Origin: a virus
DNA length: 25,456 bases
Reading direction: 5' to 3' (one strand)
UHGV virus genome: UHGV-0039951
Position 1 is the stretch's first letter. Each line of letters opens with the position of its first letter. The position numbers were made by a program, and so were the translations under genes. Shown here piece after piece: positions 1-25,456 of the stretch. The notes beneath the pieces are model-generated. The model did no database searches, had not been told where the DNA came from, and saw nothing but the letters and a program-made list of their open reading frames with translations.

Positions 1-56
1 GTCTTGAGTCTTGAGTCTTGAGTCTTGAGTCTTGAGTCTTGAGTCTTGAGTCTTGA
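1..56 (-). repeat. Heptanucleotide tandem repeat, 8 copies of GTCTTGA on plus (= TCAAGAC / AAGACTC register on minus); tract may continue beyond the window edge
   Basis: Direct reading: positions 1-56 are 8 perfect 7-nt units, followed by cata. On the minus strand the tract follows an ATG at 59..57 in frame. Confidence 0.9.
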
Positions 57-59
57 CAT
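1..59 (-). CDS. neuO: 5' end (partial) of a polysialic acid O-acetyltransferase NeuO-like gene with phase-variable heptad repeats
   Basis: Minus strand reads AGGA-N8-ATG then (TCAAGAC)n, encoding M-S-R-L-K-T-Q-D-S-R-L-K-T-Q-D with no stops. The neuO gene of K1 prophage CUS-3 is known to carry 5'-AAGACTC-3' heptad repeats in its 5' coding region. The rest of the gene lies outside the window. Confidence 0.6.
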   Translation of the reverse strand, partial: MSRLKTQDSRLKTQDSRLK

Positions 60-75
60 ATTAGTATCCTACGTT

Positions 76-104
76 ATTTTACCACTAGTTACTTTTCTTG
101 TCAT
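76..104 (-). promoter_or_regulatory. Putative sigma70 promoter for the neuO-like gene (-35 ATGACA at 104..99, 17-nt spacer, -10 TAAAAT at 81..76)
   Basis: Hexamers read on the minus strand upstream of the ATG at 59; a weak SD (AGGA) lies between. Sequence pattern only. Confidence 0.3.
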
Positions 105-212
105 TAAAAAGCATTTAAATTTTTATATTTAATTTCGTTGACGTCAATGTTTTTTGCCAATGTACTTACTTCTTTATGTGAGCAGTTCATATTTTTGACG
201 CCAACGAAACAT

Positions 213-3158
213 TTAGTGCTTCCCTTCTATTAAGTCTAACCTAGCTTTTATTCTTTCTATTTCTCTGCGCTGCCATGCCGCCTCGATATAGAATAAGAGA
301 TCAGGTCTGACCCCCCATCTAGATCCTGCTGGCGTTATTTCAACGCGCTCAATGATGTCTTCCATTACCATCACTGGATTATCATCCTCATCAACAATGA
401 TGCTCCCGTCATTATCAGTCAGCGGCATTTCCCTTTGGCCAGTAATGACGTCATCATATACTGCGGGATAATCGTCATAGCAAAGAAAGGCATAGCGGCA
501 TGTTGTGCTTTCTTCTTCCATGAGTCCGTGAGAAATAAGAACATCACGAAGTTGCTGCGCGATTACACCATGATGTATCCTCGCCCCTTCTTCCCCCTTT
601 ATAGCGACAGCGTTCAGCCATTTATAAGCGATATACCTGACGTCACCCCAGGCATCCAGCAATGTTTCGTCAGGAGAGACCGGCTCTGTCTTTAATGTTC
701 CGTCACTGGTAACCACAGGATTGGAGCCAAGATAAACTATCGAGAACCTGTTTCCCGGACCACCAAGAGCATTTACATTATCAAGATAAGGTTTAACATC
801 TCCGTTCTCAAAAAGATGTTCGAGTGCGTTATATACCGCGCGACGTGGAGTACTGCTTCCGGAACCATGCAACGTTATCATTGCACCATCTGCTGAAGAC
901 GTTGTTTCACCGCCGCTAACGATTAATCTCTGAGCGGTAACATCATCAGACGGTACTTTCTTCGCAATAATGGCGTAATTACCCTCAAGTTTGACTTCCG
1001 CGCGAACTTGTCCTGATGTACCTGCATGGACAGTCAGTGACTGGACGGCAACATCATCTGTGAAATCAACGGGTACAGGAACCGTCCTCACGCCTGACGT
1101 CGACATAAAAGTAGGAAGCGTTCTGTTAGGAGTGGCTCCGTAGACAAAATCCCTTGAAACAAATTCTTCCTGTTTAATTTTCACCCTGAAACAATACAAA
1201 TCAGCCGGGTGACCATCGTGAACATAAGGATATTTTCTGTTGTTATCCCCTATGCTCCATGGGTTTAGAAAGTCTTCCCCACCGAAAATGTAGTACAGCC
1301 AGTTGTCTTTGATACAAACTGAACCAACACCAACCGCAGAGTTAACTATTCCGCCCTGATAAATCTGATCAGTAACATTAACCCACTCTACATTATCCAG
1401 ACTCCACTCATTGACGTTAACTCTGGTCATAAATGTTCTTGGATAGTTTCCTGCATAACGGTTATCAGGTTCTCCTCCTTCCCACTCACCAAATGCGCGC
1501 TCACTGCCAAAAATAATCAGCTCATCGCCAACTTTGGCAAAAGGAAGGTTTGAGTGATGAACATTATTTGGGAAGCGAAGAGAATTCCATGATGTACCTA
1601 AATCAGAGCTTCTGTGCAATGAACTACCGGGTTGAGTACTTAATGTCCCCCTGGTCGTCAGATACAGAATGCCATCATAATATTTTACACATGGCTCAGA
1701 TGCATTCGCCTCATATTCTGCAGGTATGCGTCTGCGAACAAAGCTACCAGGAGAACCGAAAGCATCAGAGAAATAGAGTATCCCAAGCTCGCGTGGACCA
1801 ATATCACCATTATGGTAGCCAACAGCAAAACTGTTATCGCTAATCGTCGCAAAACTGTGAATCTCAGTAACAGGAGTGCTTCCGTCAACAAAAGAAGGAA
1901 TAGTTCCAAGACTGGTTTTTCTCCATGGTGACGAGTGAAATGATGTACCAAAACTCCAGTATCTACCCTCGTTATTCTGATCCACATCCTGGGTATTTTG
2001 CGTCGTAACTGTAAAAGTATTTTTATCAATAACAGTAGTCACCGTCATATTCCCGGTAACACCTGTAACACCAGAGTTTGAGAAGTTGACAAAATCACCA
2101 GCAAATAATCCGTGATCAGTAATGCGAATATAAGCGACTTGCTGATTTGCTGCTTTCGTTATACCACCATAAACGCGAAGGCTGCGACTCATTGGGCGAT
2201 CCCACAACTCTGCAACCTGCAGTTTATTTCCGCTCACGGTCCGCGTCTCAATTACAGCAAAAAGGCGATTTCTGACAACCCCCATACTCATGCAGTGATA
2301 GTTAACTGTGGGATAGTTTTCATGTAAATCTGTAAGCCATTCCGGCGTTGTCCAGGTCTTCCCGTCATCTCCTGAGCGAACCCATGCAACATGGAGGTTA
2401 TTTACACCATGGCGGTCTCCAGCCATAAAAGGCGCATAGATGACATTGTCATATACAAACGTTTTATCCTGCGTCCAGGCGTTGTACCACGGTGTATCTG
2501 TAATTTTAAATAACTCTCCCTGGATAAAATCTTCAGAAACATAAAAAAGAGGCTGACCCGGTATTCTCTCAAATAAAAAACGAGCATTTTTAAATCGACT
2601 GACATCTGGAAGAGTTGATACTTTAAAAGTAAGCCCTCGCCCATCTATCTTTTCACCACCTGTTGCAACAGAAAGTAATTCTGATAGAGCTGATGTATCA
2701 TCATGAACACCATCACCAATAGCCCCCCAACCTCTTACATCATAACTGTCTCTCCATCTTGCTATCTGAAGTTTTGGGTATTTATTCGCTCCATCTGGGT
2801 CTTCTAATTGCTGCCGTAACTGATCAGGATCATACTTCAGCACATTCGGAAAATAGAACTGCTGTGTACCATACGCATCATAAACAGCCATAGAATGGCC
2901 TTGCACGGTTACGAATTTGGCAATCTGTCCGTTATATACCGGATATCCAGCAGCGTTAATGATGATTGGTTGAGAAACAGGAACGTGAGATCCATCTTCG
3001 TTCTCTACATAAACCTGAATCTGGTTTTCAGGATTTACCGGGTCAGTGTCAATTTTTCCGATATAAATTTTGCCATTGGCTACGGCTTTAAAAGAACGCG
3101 CCATAGTGAAGAGTTGCGAAGGCATACTCACTACAACATTGGCTGTAATGTCTGTCAT
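213..3158 (-). CDS. Tailspike protein: P22 gp9-type head-binding N-terminal domain, sialidase-like (Asp-box) receptor-degrading domain, likely endosialidase; C-terminal intramolecular chaperone (peptidase S74-type) domain
   Basis: 981 aa. The N-terminal ~110 aa ([56 protein letters not shown]...) match the P22 tailspike head-binding domain as I recall it. Two Asp-box motifs ([16 protein letters not shown]) and xRIP motifs (FERIP, RRRIP). The C-terminal ~160 aa begin at S818 in the motif SDGTLK, the pattern of self-cleaving chaperone domains of endosialidases and T5 L-shaped tail fibre. Confidence 0.85.
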
Positions 3159-3290
3159 TTAATTTGCTCCAGATACAAGGAATGGCCGCAGCATGGCTAC
3201 GGTTGGCATTTGTTACATACCGAAACGGTACGATTGTTGATTTGTACAGTGGGTTTTACGATGCCATTCCACCCATTTGGTGAGGCATTG

Positions 3291-3548
3291 ATGATGTACA
3301 GCAAATACGATGAGGCGCAGTTCCACTTGAGGCTTACACACGAGTTGCACGCTAAGATTAAGCAGCGTGCAAAAATGAATAACAGGTCTATCAATTCCGA
3401 AATTGTGGCTACGATGGAAGAATCACTCTCCAAACCATCACCTGTAAGCGGGTATCGTGATGAAGAAGAGAGGCTGGCCTCATTAATCTCGGAACGAGTA
3501 AAAGAAGTTGCGGCTGAAATTCTAAGGAAAGAAAAAACCCGCGATTAA
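3291..3548 (+). CDS. mnt: Mnt-like ribbon-helix-helix (Arc/MetJ superfamily) repressor, 85 aa
   Basis: Only the C-terminal part of ORF 2895..3548 is plausible. ATG at 3291 is preceded by GGTGAGG (3278-3284). The protein (FHLRLTHELHAKIKQRAKMNNRSINSEIVATMEESLSKPSPVSGYRDEEERLA...) closely parallels P22 Mnt (NGRSMNSELLQIVQDALSKPSPVTGYRNDAERLA) as recalled. Confidence 0.7.
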   Translation: MMYSKYDEAQFHLRLTHELHAKIKQRAKMNNRSINSEIVATMEESLSKPSPVSGYRDEEERLASLISERVKEVAAEILRKEKTRD

Positions 3549-3563
3549 GCGGGTTTAGTTTTC
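3532..3563. terminator. Bidirectional intrinsic terminator between the convergent mnt-like gene and the antirepressor gene
   Basis: Stem AAACCCGC / GCGGGTTT with loop GATTAA, flanked by an A-run on the 5' side and T-rich sequence on the 3' side, so it works in both orientations. The mnt-like stop codon lies in the loop. Confidence 0.6.
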
Positions 3564-3574
3564 ATTATAAAATG

Positions 3575-4303
3575 TTACGCCACATTTGAGCCATGTAGCA
3601 GGTGTTGTAGTGCTTTAACGCCTTCAGAATTGTAACGGAACGCCTCTACCTGTTTGCTGGAATGCGCCGATTTATCTAGGAAGAACTTCCCGTACTGCTC
3701 AGTTTTGAGGTTGTTTGCGTTAGCAATGCGACCAATCTTGTTGGCCGTTACTCCAAGCTGCTCTGCAACCTCCCCTGCTGAGTAGTAATGCTCTTCTATT
3801 GCCGGAAGAGGTATTGCATTAAAACCAACGAGCGGGTTGATTATACTTGCTGCCGCTGTCTGCTTTGCCTCAGGCGCAAGATTTGGCATCAGATCGAACA
3901 GATTGGTAACAGCTTCAACCGTCATTTTCAATGTTCTCGCTTGACGATACTCAACAAGTCCACTCGCTGATTTACCGCTTTTAATGTGCGCTTCTTGCAT
4001 ACTTTCAAGTTGGTCTACCAGTGAGCGGCGAACGGCTTTTGACTCGCGAGCGGCAACTCGCAATGCTTGCTTGATTGACATCTCAATGATAACCATCGAA
4101 GTTTTGTTCGCTTTTTGCACTACACTTTTTGTGTAGTGCTCTCCATCCAATTCATCTTCAATTTTCTCGATGAATTTGTTATTACGAACCTCCGGCTCAC
4201 CGCACTGTCTACGAGCCTGATTTACCATCTCAAGCAGGCGCTGGCTGTCAATGGTTTTATCCGTGACAACGGATCCGATGTTTGCTACATTCTTAAAAGT
4301 CAT
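3575..4303 (-). CDS. Antirepressor-like protein (AntA-like N-terminus, KilAC-like C-terminal motif), 243 aa
   Basis: ORF 3575..4354 trimmed to the ATG at 4303 (MTFKNVANIG...), which is preceded by AAGGAA at 7-nt spacing. The C-terminal motif YYSAGEVAEQLGVTANKIGRIANANNLKTEQYGKFF resembles KilAC domains. Family assignment from recalled motifs only. Confidence 0.5.
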   Translation of the reverse strand: MTFKNVANIGSVVTDKTIDSQRLLEMVNQARRQCGEPEVRNNKFIEKIEDELDGEHYTKSVVQKANKTSMVIIEMSIKQALRVAARESKAVRRSLVDQLESMQEAHIKSGKSASGLVEYRQARTLKMTVEAVTNLFDLMPNLAPEAKQTAAASIINPLVGFNAIPLPAIEEHYYSAGEVAEQLGVTANKIGRIANANNLKTEQYGKFFLDKSAHSSKQVEAFRYNSEGVKALQHLLHGSNVA

Positions 4304-4371
4304 TAGGCATTCCTTATGTGGTAGTAAGGGTGTGACATAGGCCGCCAGCAGCACACTGGCGGTTTTCTTTT
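4298..4371 (+). ncRNA. Putative Sar-like antisense RNA covering the RBS and start codon of the downstream antirepressor gene
   Basis: Candidate promoter GTGACA (4263-4268), 17-nt spacer, TACATT (4286-4291), then about 74 nt to the plus-strand terminator. The transcript would be complementary to the ATG at 4303 and SD at 4311-4316. Analogy to P22 sar RNA; inference only. Confidence 0.25.
4342..4371 (+). terminator. Plus-strand intrinsic terminator antisense to the antirepressor operon
   Basis: Perfect 7-bp stem CCGCCAG / CTGGCGG with 7-nt loop, followed by TTTTCTTTTT on the plus strand. On the minus strand the hairpin is followed by no U-tract, so it is orientation-specific. Confidence 0.55.
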
Positions 4372-4391
4372 TGCGCCGTCCGGCGCACCAA

Positions 4392-5030
4392 TCAATGAAT
4401 CCATTCCTCGCCGCGCAGTTTTGCCAGCATTGGCTGAGCGTTCTTTACGACAAAATTGTTGGTATCAAGATTCTTCATTTCACGAAGAAGTGATTTCTTG
4501 GTTTCTTCTGACATGTAGCGAGTCTCATATGCAATATCGTAAATCCTTCCAGAAAGCTCAGAACCAATTTGCTTCATTCCTGGGTAGATGTGTTTGCACA
4601 TTTGTTGACTCTTCTCCATCCACAATTGTAAGTAGCAGAGATTAACCAGCTCTTCGTCAGTAAACTGTTTTGCAATCGGTGAGCATTCTGCCTGCCGATC
4701 CAAAATATCCAGCACCCAGCGGCGGAACTCTTTAGCCTTGGGCGTAGAAGCAAACATCGCCACCAAGTGAGCGCCTCGGAGCGAGTAAACTCTGACCGAT
4801 TTGTTACGTAAGCTATTGTTTATCCCGTTGACCTTCATATTGAGGGTCAATGACATTGAGTCGGAAAACTCGTCAGCATTACGGGCATAAATTTGGCTGA
4901 TGGCATCAGTTTTTTTATAGCCGAGAGCCTTAGCTAGTTCGGTGGAGGTAAACCAGATAGACCCACCCTCTGTTACAGGGTTAAAGGTGAATCCTTGGAA
5001 GTTATAATCTGATTTTGCTATAATGTTCAT
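4392..5030 (-). CDS. ant: Antirepressor with BRO-N-type N-terminal domain (Ant-like), 212 aa from ATG 5030; ORF could extend to 5114
   Basis: The motif YNFQGFTFNPVTEGGSIWFTSTELAKALGY is typical of BRO-N/antirepressor N-termini. ATG at 5030 is preceded by AAGGAA. An alternative start at 5114 also has an SD and would overlap the arc-like stop. Confidence 0.6.
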   Translation of the reverse strand: MNIIAKSDYNFQGFTFNPVTEGGSIWFTSTELAKALGYKKTDAISQIYARNADEFSDSMSLTLNMKVNGINNSLRNKSVRVYSLRGAHLVAMFASTPKAKEFRRWVLDILDRQAECSPIAKQFTDEELVNLCYLQLWMEKSQQMCKHIYPGMKQIGSELSGRIYDIAYETRYMSEETKKSLLREMKNLDTNNFVVKNAQPMLAKLRGEEWIH

Positions 5031-5103
5031 GTTAGTTTCCTTGCATACGGTTACTGACATAGAGGCCCGGTTTGTGTTCGCGCACTGCCGGGCTTCACTG
5101 TTT

Positions 5104-5277
5104 TTACTGGGCATTAGCTCTTTCCTCTCTCAGGCTTTTAGCCAGTCGCTGCACAATCGCAGAGTTGATAGAAATTCCATCCATTTCAGCAACACGTCTA
5201 ATCTCCTCCTTCATTCGCGCTGGCAAACGAAGCTGGAAACTTTGGCTTTTACGACCTGTGTAAAGCACATCTTTCAT
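5104..5277 (-). CDS. arc: Arc-like ribbon-helix-helix repressor, 57 aa
   Basis: ATG at 5277 preceded by GGGAGA. The protein MKDVLYTGRKSQSFQLRLPARMKEEIRRVAEMDGISINSAIVQRLAKSL parallels P22 Arc (QFNLRWPREVLDLVRKVAEENGRSVNSEIYQRVMESF). The ORF-track start at 5292 is a GTG inside the SD region. Confidence 0.65.
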   Translation of the reverse strand: MKDVLYTGRKSQSFQLRLPARMKEEIRRVAEMDGISINSAIVQRLAKSLREERANAQ

Positions 5278-5298
5278 AAGTAATTCTCCCACAATGAT

Positions 5299-5356
5299 AC
5301 CAACTTGGTTCTAGAACCAATTTAACACCATTTATTTTGATGTCAAGTTGGTGCTA
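5299..5356. promoter_or_regulatory. Divergent control region: Pant-like promoter on minus strand (-35 TTGACA 5346..5341, -10 TAAATT 5324..5319) with operator-like palindromes
   Basis: Perfect 16-bp palindrome TTGGTTCTAGAACCAA (5305-5320) overlapping the -10 and start site. Inverted half-sites ACCAACTTGG (5299-5308) and CAAGTTGGTG (5347-5356). The arrangement mirrors the P22 immI Pant/Omnt/Oarc layout. Confidence 0.45.
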
Positions 5357-5388
5357 TTGTTTAGCGAACATCTTTACGTTGAGGTCAT

Positions 5389-5772
5389 ATGAGCAAGTTC
5401 CCTAGTCATGAAATGGATAGGTTCAATATCAGGCTTCCGGCAGGAATGCGGGATGCTATAGCCTTAAGAGCAAAGGAAAACGGCAGATCAATGAATACAG
5501 AACTAGTGTTTATCATTGATGATGCATTGAAGTCTCCGGTGCCTGCTGAGGTTGATAACTCAAGGATTATGAAGATTTACTCAAACCTCTCCGGGAACAG
5601 GCCATCAAACAAAGAAGAGTTTGAGCGGTGGGAGAATGAGCTAGTCAAAGCAATTTTCTACTTACTAGATAGCATCAGTTCTCATTCGCAAATGTACCAA
5701 GCTCTCAGGAGCTTAAGGCAAGATGCATATAAAAATGTTTTTGGCGATGATGCTGAAGACATCCAGTTTTGA
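5389..5772 (+). CDS. Mnt/Arc-type ribbon-helix-helix regulator with ~80-aa C-terminal extension, 127 aa
   Basis: ATG at 5389 preceded by GAGG. The N-terminus ([38 protein letters not shown]) is an RHH motif of Mnt type. Divergent from the arc/ant operon. Confidence 0.7.
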
Positions 5773-5816
5773 AGACCATTTCATCTGGTATCTTGCGTAA
5801 AACTAAGGAGGTTGGT

Positions 5817-6311
5817 GTGTCTGATTCTATGAGTTACGCTGTGCTAGTTGCCGCAACTCTATTTCTGGGGATAGGGTTGCAGATTGCGTGGTTCTTTTTT
5901 TCTAGTTTTATTAAACGTAAAAGAATTGAATCAAGGATATCTGAGATTTCTATTGCTATAGGGAAAAATGCTGAAAATCCAGAGAATGAGGCCTGCGCAC
6001 TGAATTACCTTAAAGAAAAGTTTTCCCCTGAAAAATTTGAAAACAGAATTACTGATGCTCTTGGATTGGTAATATCAGTAATTCATATGCCACTAAGTTT
6101 GCTGATAACAGTGTGGTACTTCGCCATGATCGCCGGAAGAATATTTGGCTTCATGAATATAGAGCCTGTAGTTCTTTGGGTTCCAATGATACTGCAACTG
6201 TTGTTAAGCGTTGCTATCTTTATTTTTTCTGTTTTTATAAAAATTGTCTTTGGAAGATACCCCGGAGAAGCGAAGGGATTTAATAAAGAATTCATAAAAA
6301 CTATAAAATAA
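5817..6311 (+). CDS. Small integral membrane protein (3 predicted TM helices); candidate superinfection-exclusion or lysogenic-conversion protein at the position sieA occupies in P22
   Basis: The ORF-track start at 5769 is TTG. A strong SD (AAGGAGG, 5804-5810) sits 6 nt before GTG 5817. Three hydrophobic segments. AT-rich composition relative to neighbours. Confidence 0.55.
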
Positions 6312-6333
6312 ATGCCGTCCTTGGCTTACAGTG

Positions 6334-8175
6334 CTACTGCCGGGTCGCTTCGTTAGCTAAGAGCGGGCGCACGGCAGTAGCCGCCTGATTTAGCGCTCTT
6401 TCATAGGCTGGTGTTCCTGCTTTGGTGTTTGCCAGACGTAAGAGCGCATTCCTTGCTGCTTTGGACTCATACAAACGCATCATTGCACCAAAACCAGCCT
6501 CAAGCCCCATTGATACGCCAAGAGTCGCGGTTGCGCCAATCGTCCTTATCCTGTTGGCTTGCGATTGCCCCGTCTGAGTTACTACATTTGCGGTGTCTGA
6601 CCTTGCTGTTTGCTGTAGAACTTCATGAAGAGCATCAAGCTCTTTCATATGCTTTCCAGAAAAAATAGTGTTGTAAATTTCACCACCTGACTGAGATTTC
6701 AGCTTATTAACTTCAGTGATGAACTTGGCTGGAGAGTCACCGGCCTTTTCCGCTATTTTGCTGACGTAAGCTGCACGCATAGCATCTTTACCATTATCAT
6801 CCAATGCGCTCCAGATTCGTTTCACGTCAGATGGTTTTCTGCTTAATACAACGGTATTTATAAGTTCAGGGCTGGCTTCACTACTTGCCTTATTGAGCTT
6901 GTTAGCAATGTTTTTATTAAGCACCTTATTATAAACGTTTGCATAATCGGAATTTGCTTTAAGGTATTTTGCTGCGTCTGATGCACCGCGGTTTTTAGCA
7001 ACTGCGTTACGAAGGTCTTTTGACATTGCATTCTCTACCATATTGGTAGCTGCTTTTGCCTGGTTGGGGAAGACCATAGCATCTCCCTGAACATTAGATC
7101 TAAATGCTGTTCTGTGCTGACGCAAGAGATCAAACGTAACCTCCAAATCAGTTGCAGGGTTTGCTAATTCTTCACGTAGGTTACGTAAGGATGTAAGCAG
7201 GCTTTGATTGGCAGACGTCCCAAGCCGTTCCTGTCTTGCGATCGCTGTATTCAGAGCATTCATGGTATTTGTGGTATCAACTGCGGCATTACCCATTTTA
7301 TTGGTGACGTCATTGATAACAGCGCCAGCGGCATCCTTCCGCCCCCTTAACGTGGTGGTCAGAGATTTCACCACATCATCAGGGTTGTACTCACCAAAAC
7401 GGTCAAAATAATTACTTACCAGCTTACTACGCGTTGCATATTGCTCCGCTCGCTTTGAGCCTGTCCCGAGCAAAGCCCCCTCGGCATCCTGAGTAAGGCC
7501 GCGAGTGAAAGCATTTTTCGGCGGGATAACATCAGATGTCATTGGTGTCACGCCCATCGATTCTGATGTGGCAATTTTATTCGCCACTTCTGGCGCAATA
7601 TCACCTTTTATAGCCGTTATTCCACGCCCTATTCCCTTTGCTGCTGCGGAAAGAACACCCTGAGCGGCAAGGTTAACTCCGGCATTTTTAGCTGCATTTT
7701 GTGCGAAATCGCCTTTCTGATTTGCGGCCTCTGCCAGTGAGCCAATAGCCATGCTTCCTGCCGTTCCAACTCCTGGAACTAAATACCCACCAATTGTTTC
7801 ACCGGCTTGCGCGTAGGGGTCTGTCGGTCTGTCTACTGGACGATAAACATCATCCAAAACCTTGGGTCCACCAAGCCCCTGACTGATTGCATTAATCAGA
7901 CTTGCGCCACCCTGCAAAACGTCAAATGGTATGTTCACCAGACCACGACCAGCCTGTTCTGCAATTTGCCCTGCACTTTGACCACCAGTGAGCCAATCGC
8001 CAGCTTGTTGCATCAATGATGGTTCTTCACGTGCTGGTTCATTATTGGCCTGATTAACTGTTTGTTGCTGAACAGCCTGACCAGCAAAATACTCATCAAT
8101 GGCGGTGCCAATATCTTCCGTGCTCGTACCATCAGGGAAGGTAAATGTCTTACCGTTTGCAGTTACTTTCATCAT
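6334..8175 (-). CDS. Ejection (injection) protein, P22 gp16-like
   Basis: 613 aa; last of three ejection-protein genes after the tail needle, in P22 order 7-20-16; size matches P22 gp16 (~609 aa). Assigned by synteny and size. Confidence 0.7.
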
Positions 8176-25194: not shown

Positions 25195-25374
25195 CTTGTT
25201 TTCCTCGCACGATGTCTTAGCCACCGGATATCACCACAGGTGAGCCGTGTAGTTGAAGGTTTTTACGTCAGATTCTTTTGGGATTGGCTTGCGGTTATTT
25301 CTGGAGCGTTTCGTTGGAAGGTATTTGCAGTTTTCGCAGATGATGTCGGTGATACTTCGTCGCTGTCGTCTCAT
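25191..25374 (-). pseudogene. ninE: ninE with apparent +1 frameshift near 25233 (truncated to 47 aa in the window; the conserved C-terminus is readable in the shifted frame)
   Basis: [47 protein letters not shown] then stop at 25233..25231. The next frame immediately encodes DIRWLRHRARKTR ending in a TGA that overlaps the ninF GTG, which is the lambda NinE C-terminus as recalled. Confidence 0.5.
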
Positions 25375-25456
25375 GCTGCCCTGTCTCCCCATCGCGCTTT
25401 CCATTCGAGAGCCAGTCGCGCTTCGTCTGACCACTTAACGCCACGCTCTGTACCGA

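Follow-up and report, generated by a model that had tools for sequence, protein, structure and literature searches.

Organization of the locus

The stretch of DNA analyzed here, referred to as the window, is 25,456 nucleotides long and comes from the virus genome UHGV-0039951 (Table 1). It begins inside a tandem repeat: positions 1..56 consist of 8.0 copies of GTCTTGA, with a period of 7 and 100% matches (score 112 in Tandem Repeats Finder). A 21-nt probe made of three units has six overlapping matches in the window, and none of 100 dinucleotide-preserving shuffles matched it. On the minus strand the region reads AGGATACTAAT-ATG-TCAAGACTCAAGACTC..., with AGGA at 70..67 and the ATG at 59..57, and the sequence across the start of neuO is ...GTAGGATACTAAT ATG TCA AGA CTC AAG ACT CAA GAC... 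The reading frame which opens at this ATG translates to MSRLKTQDSRLKTQDSRLK and leaves the window at its left edge.

The first-pass annotation of this DNA, made from the sequence alone, had reported eight perfect copies of GTCTTGA at positions 1-56 and a minus-strand ATG preceded by AGGA, and both are borne out, the frame being open up to the left edge. It had also placed the tract directly after the ATG. The ATG does lead into the tract, but the AAGACTC register starts 2 nt after the start codon, in the order ATG, TC, seven full units and AAGAC. The tract in the window, 56 nt or seven full units and 5 nt of an eighth, is a lower bound: since the window starts inside the tract, the copy number can be read only as a minimum. 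The part of neuO that lies inside the window amounts to 19 codons; the body of the acetyltransferase is beyond the left edge, and so is the information on the full number of copies and on the phase. The annotation was therefore correct in its caveat that neither the copy number nor the ON/OFF state can be read from the window.

The gene immediately upstream of neuO has the same length as siaK1 of phage CUS-3. Its Pfam matches (End_beta_propel with an E-value of 1.2e-233, End_tail_spike, End_beta_barrel, End_N_terminal, Head_binding and Peptidase_S74) correspond to a P22 head-binding domain, an endosialidase N-terminal extension, a β-propeller, a β-barrel, a tailspike domain and a C-terminal intramolecular chaperone. 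The remainder of the window is a late region of the P22/HK620 type, in which antirepressors, an Arc-like regulator and a SieA-like exclusion gene are followed by DNA-transfer proteins, head and portal genes, the terminase, a lysis cassette, Q and nin genes. No kps/neu genes are present within the window.

Table 1. Positions of the features described in the window (all coordinates refer to the 25,456-nucleotide stretch).
Feature	Position	Strand	Basis and remarks
Promoter-proximal neuO poly-psi VNTR	1..56	minus	TC + 7 x AAGACTC + AAGAC (plus strand: 8 x GTCTTGA); SRLKTQD heptads; cut by the left end
neuO start codon ATG	57..59	minus	RefSeq CDS starts at the equivalent base (window 59) in 7/7 phase-ON genomes
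Shine-Dalgarno-like AGGA, 7 nt 5' of the ATG	67..70	minus	sequence; kept in 15/15 loci compared
AT-rich intergenic region, siaK1 stop codon to neuO ATG	60..212	minus	holds the 5' leader and promoter region
Proximal sigma-70-like site: ATGACA, 17-nt spacer, TG-extended TAAAAT	76..104	minus	10/12 consensus matches only
Distal sigma-70-like site: TTGACG, 17-nt spacer, AAAAAT	119..147	minus	9/12 consensus matches; overlaps the palindrome TTGACGTCAA
siaK1-type endosialidase tailspike gene, 981 aa, immediately upstream of neuO	213..3158	minus	CUS-3 identity and Pfam
Two antirepressor genes	3575..4354 and 4392..5114	minus	immI-like region
Arc-like regulator	5389..5772	plus	immI-like region
SieA-like superinfection-exclusion gene	5769..6311	plus	immI-like region; low GC, about 0.34-0.40

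Relation to phage CUS-3

Positions 1-3203 of the window are 99.1% identical to Enterobacteria phage CUS-3 (CP000711.1). The CUS-3 record annotates the homologous tract as 'neuO, poly(psi) domain', with 19 copies of the heptanucleotide AAGACTC, adjoining siaK1. The neuO poly-psi locus of CUS-3, from E. coli K1 strain RS218, was described by Deszo et al. 2005, as cited in PMC3046976. The window shares with it the heptamer, its position 2 nt after the ATG, the Shine-Dalgarno sequence, the leader (1 mismatch in 159 nt) and the endosialidase tailspike gene upstream (99.1% over 3.2 kb); the relatives described below also have the same protein and obey the same frame rule. The proposal that this is the architecture of neuO in CUS-3, next to an endosialidase tailspike gene, is thus supported by the identity over 1-3203, by the annotated tract of CUS-3 and by the Pfam domains of the upstream gene. 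The tract belongs to the neuO poly-psi contingency locus proper, rather than to a system that only resembles it. All the defining features that can be read in the window are present there, and the others are found in relatives whose upstream flank differs from that of the window by 0-1 mismatches. This reading of the tract is already known and fully described, and it leaves the knowledge of the mechanism unchanged.

The window differs from the reference phage in some respects. Codon 2 of neuO is TCA (Ser) in the window and TTA (Leu) in CUS-3 of RS218, and both alleles occur among public contigs. Past window position 3203, the backbone of the prophage diverges from that of CUS-3. The immI-like region, 3100-6400, differs from that of reference CUS-3, and in its late region the window is overall nearer to HK620 (54% covered) than to CUS-3 (44% covered). 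The immI segment (3100-6400) has a 100% match only in two chicken isolates, MS1657 (24 units, ON) and VTB96929v (23 units, OFF). The backbone of the window is therefore a known variant of CUS-3 from avian extraintestinal pathogenic E. coli (ExPEC), distinct from the RS218 reference.

These two isolates are also the genomes with the best match to the window. MS1657 carries an IS66-family element, ISCro1, within its tailspike gene (L003 4640-7200), and VTB96929v carries IS2 within its lysozyme gene (L155 10871-12199). Both elements are absent from the window, whose prophage region looks less decayed than those of the two isolates.

The right end of the window (25300-25456) falls where ninE meets ninB in the lambdoid nin region; this region is present in 2337 of 5426 genomes, in up to eight places per genome. 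As for the left end, seven of the 16 neuO-bearing IMG/VR contigs also end inside the heptamer tract, hence a break at this position is common in assembly and is not necessarily biological. With both of its ends in repeated DNA, the window has the appearance of an entire short-read contig delimited by breaks in the assembly, and it was probably interrupted on each side by the repeats.

It might be argued that the edge repeat is not genomic DNA but was produced during sequencing or assembly, for example by the collapse of a contig end or by chimerism, considering that it stands exactly at the end of the window and that its perfect periodicity extends over 56 nt, which would be near common assembler k-mer sizes. 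The same junction, AGGATACTAATATGTC followed by AAGACTC units, is however found in 14 E. coli chromosomes that are complete and for the most part long-read, and it recurs in all but one (L139) of the 16 neuO-bearing IMG/VR contigs; in CUS-3, the TC is replaced by TT. An artefactual origin is thus exceedingly improbable. The existence of the tract is settled, and any artefact would be limited to its truncation.

Copy number and reading frame in related loci

The tract was compared between 15 loci, those of CUS-3 and of 14 complete E. coli chromosomes carrying the segment. These 14 genomes were partly chosen by annotation, and the ratio of seven ON to eight OFF loci is therefore not a population estimate. 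The numbers of units are 19, 8 (followed by two interrupted units), 24, 23, 30, 8, 16, 15, 18, 20, 33, 31, 18, 23 and 27, a range of 8-33, compared to 8 to 32 or more in viral contigs. On the upstream side, the 159 nt next to the tract show no mismatch to the window in any of the 14 E. coli genomes and one in CUS-3. On the downstream side, 640 nt differ by 0-3 mismatches in 14 of the 15 loci; the comparison is out of register for the remaining one, MS1718, whose neuO body, when it is read directly, looks like that of the other loci. The neuO tract is thus hypervariable amid nearly invariant flanks, which is the signature of a slippage-prone repeat. The window's own allele could conceivably have a tract length or an interruption which has so far gone unreported, but we regard this as improbable.

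When the number of units is divisible by 3, the ATG opens a full-length acyltransferase. This is the case in all seven such loci, with products of 251, 258, 258, 272, 279, 286 and 293 aa, that is, a core of 216 aa plus 7 aa for every three units. In the eight loci where the number is not divisible by 3, the frame yields stubs of 22-77 aa. Seven of these eight stubs end in ...SRLVFR or in ...RFPLMIMDQVIFLYVEIL before the stop codon, MS1718 being the exception: numbers congruent to 1 modulo 3 lead to ...SRLVFR and a stop, and those congruent to 2 lead to ...KTRFPLMIMDQVIFLYVEIL and a stop. The RefSeq annotation follows the same division. The ON loci have a full-length acyl/acetyltransferase CDS which starts at the ATG, and the OFF loci have only a C-terminal fragment of 111 aa. 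The expectation that only repeat numbers divisible by 3 keep the frame is thus verified in the relatives, the window's own allele lying outside this test.

The 111-aa 'acyltransferase' of the OFF genomes was considered as an alternative product and rejected, as a fragment initiated at an internal ATG and a by-product of annotation. It starts at the methionine of the HDCMIARD motif and excludes the catalytic histidine, which lies just N-terminal of that methionine (His119 in NeuO, PMC3046976).

The protein of 272 aa encoded by one of the ON loci matches PDB entry 3JQY, 'polysialic acid O-acetyltransferase', with an E-value of 1.9e-160 and is essentially identical to it over 242 residues. It also passes the Pfam threshold for Hexapep (1.5e-10). 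The claim that an acetyltransferase lies downstream of the tract is borne out in the relatives by these two matches, while the corresponding body is outside the window. In the crystal structure of NeuO, the heptad domain is disordered (PMC3046976).

Several loci depart from the regular pattern. In MS1718 (L002 2985-3056), which is 100% identical to window 1-1200, eight perfect units are followed by AAGACTA and then by AAGACTC. Through this C-to-A change the frame meets a TAA after 22 codons, although ten units would be out of frame anyway. Judging from its sequence, this interruption looks like a mutation that may stabilize or lock the tract. In the viral contig L139 (IMGVR_UViG_3300007747_000060), the tract comes directly after AGGA, the start codon being absent together with the rest of the 12 nt TACTAATATGTC. 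Contig L137 carries AGGATACTAACATGTC.

These departures bear on whether the tract of the window could be a mere remnant, with neuO truncated or inactivated past the window edge by a deletion, an insertion sequence or an interrupted repeat, in which case the repeat would control nothing. CUS-3-like prophages are indeed often decayed, as illustrated by the insertions in the tailspike gene of MS1657 (IS66 family) and in the lysozyme gene of VTB96929v (IS2). Degraded forms of neuO itself are also found: strain CE10 has a 5'-truncated copy (PMC9659370), the C-to-A change puts a TAA in frame in MS1718, and L139 is devoid of the 12 nt that hold the start codon. Nevertheless, in each of the 15 loci with the same upstream sequence the tract leads into the neuO body, neither the tailspike gene nor the late region of the window contains an IS insertion, and stopping inside the tract is a property that the window shares with seven of the 16 neuO-bearing viral contigs. 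We consider it very unlikely that the tract is a remnant. The source genome likely carries an intact neuO body past the edge of the window; this is said to be likely rather than certain because degraded copies, such as those of CE10 and MS1718, exist.

Leader and candidate promoters

The GC content of the first 300 nt of the window is 34%. Two sigma-70-like sites are found between siaK1 and neuO (Table 1). The proximal one, at 104..76, would yield a very short leader, and the distal one, at 147..119, is a candidate for a promoter of neuO's own, on the grounds of its sequence. A perfect palindrome of 10 bp, TTGACGTCAA, at window positions 138-147 overlaps the -35 element of the distal site; it could be a binding site for a putative regulator.

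A terminator scan of window 1..600 detected no intrinsic terminator between siaK1 and neuO, so that neuO may also be transcribed by read-through out of the late operon. Neither an Rfam scan at the gathering threshold nor a tRNA scan produced any match over the whole window. A 12-codon ORF, MFRWRQKYELLT, found on the minus strand right after the tailspike stop codon (about 212..174), was rejected, there being no support for it beyond its existence.

Distribution and genomic site in E. coli

Among 5426 complete E. coli genomes, 194 have the 1.2 kb segment corresponding to window 1-1200, and it is chromosomal in every case. According to published surveys, neuO occurs in 43.5% of 8,659 K1 genomes and in 88.1% of ST95 genomes, and 64 complete genomes have between 3 and 53 repeats, with 65.6% OFF (PMC13001214).

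In the arrangement of CUS-3, neuO is flanked on its far side by the integrase, attL and the argW tRNA, all of which would lie outside the window. In most of the loci that were opened, the neuO-siaK1 segment adjoins the integrase gene intS, and tRNA-Arg and yfdC are visible near neuO in the two wider views, which come from genomes with identical flanks. In strains 19AR1321 (L006) and SW4848 (L014), the segment is found near torT or ybhB, with only a fragment of an integrase gene, and not at argW. These copies fit the second insertion site of CUS-3-like prophages that was reported in PMC9659370. Some genomes have up to four places which match window 1-1200.

Comparison with other systems

The neuO tract has the general attributes of a contingency locus: it is a perfect short repeat, it lies in the 5' part of a coding sequence, and the length of its unit is not a multiple of 3. 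Intragenic simple-sequence contingency loci are known from mucosal pathogens, for example lic1A and lic2A of Haemophilus influenzae, with (CAAT)n, and opa of Neisseria, with (CTCTT)n. These genes have in common with neuO a short repeat near the 5' end of the ORF, a translational switch based on slipped strands, and a target which modifies the cell surface. Unlike lic1A and opa, neuO has a 7-nt unit, its repeat is translated into an RLKTQDS domain that tunes activity, and it is carried by a prophage instead of the core genome; these differences are known ones.

Other P22-like phages have serotype-converting morons at the junction between tailspike and integrase genes, such as oac of Shigella phage Sf6 and gtrABC of P22. 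The genomic slot is the same as that of neuO, and in each case a prophage alters the surface polysaccharide recognized by its own tailspike. The products, however, are a membrane acyltransferase-3 and glucosyltransferases, and these genes are not known to have a heptanucleotide frame switch.

To our knowledge, OatWY of Neisseria meningitidis W/Y has no AAGACTC tract and is not borne by a prophage. Among homologues with a solved structure, it stands nearest to the NeuO core after NeuO itself, being the next-best structure match of the 272-aa protein (2WLC, 6e-31). OatWY has a left-handed β-helix hexapeptide fold and catalyzes the same chemistry on sialic-acid capsules as NeuO, but it is devoid of the N-terminal heptad domain (PMC3046976).

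AAGACTC arrays in other bacteria

An exact scan for four AAGACTC units, with one genome per species, found them at a minimum of 120 loci (L016-L135); it carries no information on neuO's host range. These loci are arrays of four units or more in unrelated environmental bacteria (e.g., L024 1608-1649, L055, L068, L081 and L105), and none of the array loci listed is neuO. Among the matches listed, the hosts include Acidobacteriota, Planctomycetota, Balneolaceae, Bacteroidota and a Methylococcales sponge symbiont; arrays occur on at least 11 contigs of the Acidobacteriota MAG SZAS-13 and on at least nine of the sponge symbiont. The environmental tracts, again among the matches listed, have 4-17 units and are usually located inside mixed arrays of the related heptamers AGGACTC, AAGGCTC and AAGACTA. 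In the Methylococcales symbiont, a conserved CTCCTTGATTTTTG comes after several of the tracts.

Considering the 83 listed matches with enough flanking sequence, an array lies within 40 nt 5' of an ATG-initiated ORF of at least 100 aa in nine cases on the AAGACTC strand versus one on the opposite strand. By eye, the genes downstream of the arrays seem to be ordinary, housekeeping-like ones (hemL-like, a subunit of glycine dehydrogenase, an aldo-keto reductase, TetR and a porin). One could imagine from these data that AAGACTC arrays form a widespread class of structure-free heptamer leaders and that the switch of neuO arose by the capture of one of them into an ORF. If this were true, the neuO tract would not be a one-off invention, but we find such an origin very improbable.

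The same strand bias among the listed matches, nine against one, could also suggest that the array of neuO acts mainly on transcription or as a leader, for instance through promoter spacing or as an unstructured 5' leader, and not as a frame switch. The tract has no predicted self-structure, as would be expected of such a leader. The regulator DsdC was found to act on neuO by binding within and just downstream of its coding sequence, at a resolution which does not single out the tract, and an influence on slippage was speculated; its binding to the promoter at neuO is weak (PMC9659370). However, the tract of neuO lies downstream of both the Shine-Dalgarno sequence and the ATG, the frame rule predicts the integrity of the ORF in 15 of 15 loci, and the gain of a single unit, from 38 to 39, was enough to switch on O-acetylation experimentally (PMC8653822). 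We therefore attach practically no weight to a role of the neuO array as a leader or transcriptional element in place of a frame switch.

Proposed mechanism

The best explanation as a whole, which we hold with great confidence, is that the tract is the neuO poly-psi tract of a CUS-3-like prophage and that it operates as a slipped-strand frame switch of NeuO. The present analysis shows the anatomy of the locus and its identity with CUS-3, a copy number which varies between invariant flanks, the rule for keeping the frame, and which protein the gene encodes.

The 7-nt unit is read as part of the gene, 2 nt past the ATG, and slipped-strand mispairing at replication would add or remove units. Slippage as the mechanism is taken from the literature, and so are the enzymatic activity and the phenotypes. 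The tract was described as a VNTR located two nucleotides past the start codon, with 2-93 copies and mostly single-unit changes by strand slippage (PMC3046976). Within a single culture, fragment analysis showed that 93% of the population had 21 repeats, 1.9% had 20 and 5.4% had 22 (PMC13001214). Folding of the tract as single-stranded DNA predicts no self-structure (MFE of 0 kcal/mol). An instability driven by hairpins is therefore unsupported, and simple out-of-register re-annealing is sufficient.

Since 7 is not a multiple of 3, only numbers of units divisible by 3 keep the frame and give active NeuO (phase ON); with other numbers, translation stops a few codons beyond the tract (phase OFF). 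Each ON allele contains one RLKTQDS heptad for every three units. This agrees with the published description, in which full-length translation occurs at multiples of three only and three units encode one RLKTQDS heptad (PMC3046976). The experiment mentioned above illustrates the switch: an OFF strain with 38 repeats gave rise to ON variants with 39 repeats after four passages, and O-acetylation increased from 3% to 44% (PMC8653822). [quoted passage not shown] The frame rule and this published dependence together imply that the tract is both an on/off switch and a gain control.

On the left of window position 1, one would expect to find more AAGACTC units, then GTTTTCCGTTGATGATAATGG, then the hexapeptide-repeat ORF of NeuO.

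Significance

The practical value of these results lies in annotation: they assign the window to a CUS-3-like prophage of K1-type ExPEC. Because contigs break at the tract, gene callers and short-read assemblies miss neuO or assign it the wrong phase.

According to the literature, the O-acetylation of the K1 capsule alters its antigenicity and protects the cell against K1-specific phages. The protective effect of NeuO against K1 phage was reported in PMC9659370, and neuO was also found to protect against K1 phage and neutrophils (PMC13001214). The gene is a textbook case of a mobile contingency locus, in which prophage-borne repeats stochastically switch and tune the O-acetylation of the K1 capsule, a modification with effects on antigenicity, on how susceptible cells are to K1 phages, on their killing by neutrophils and by serum, and on resistance to desiccation.
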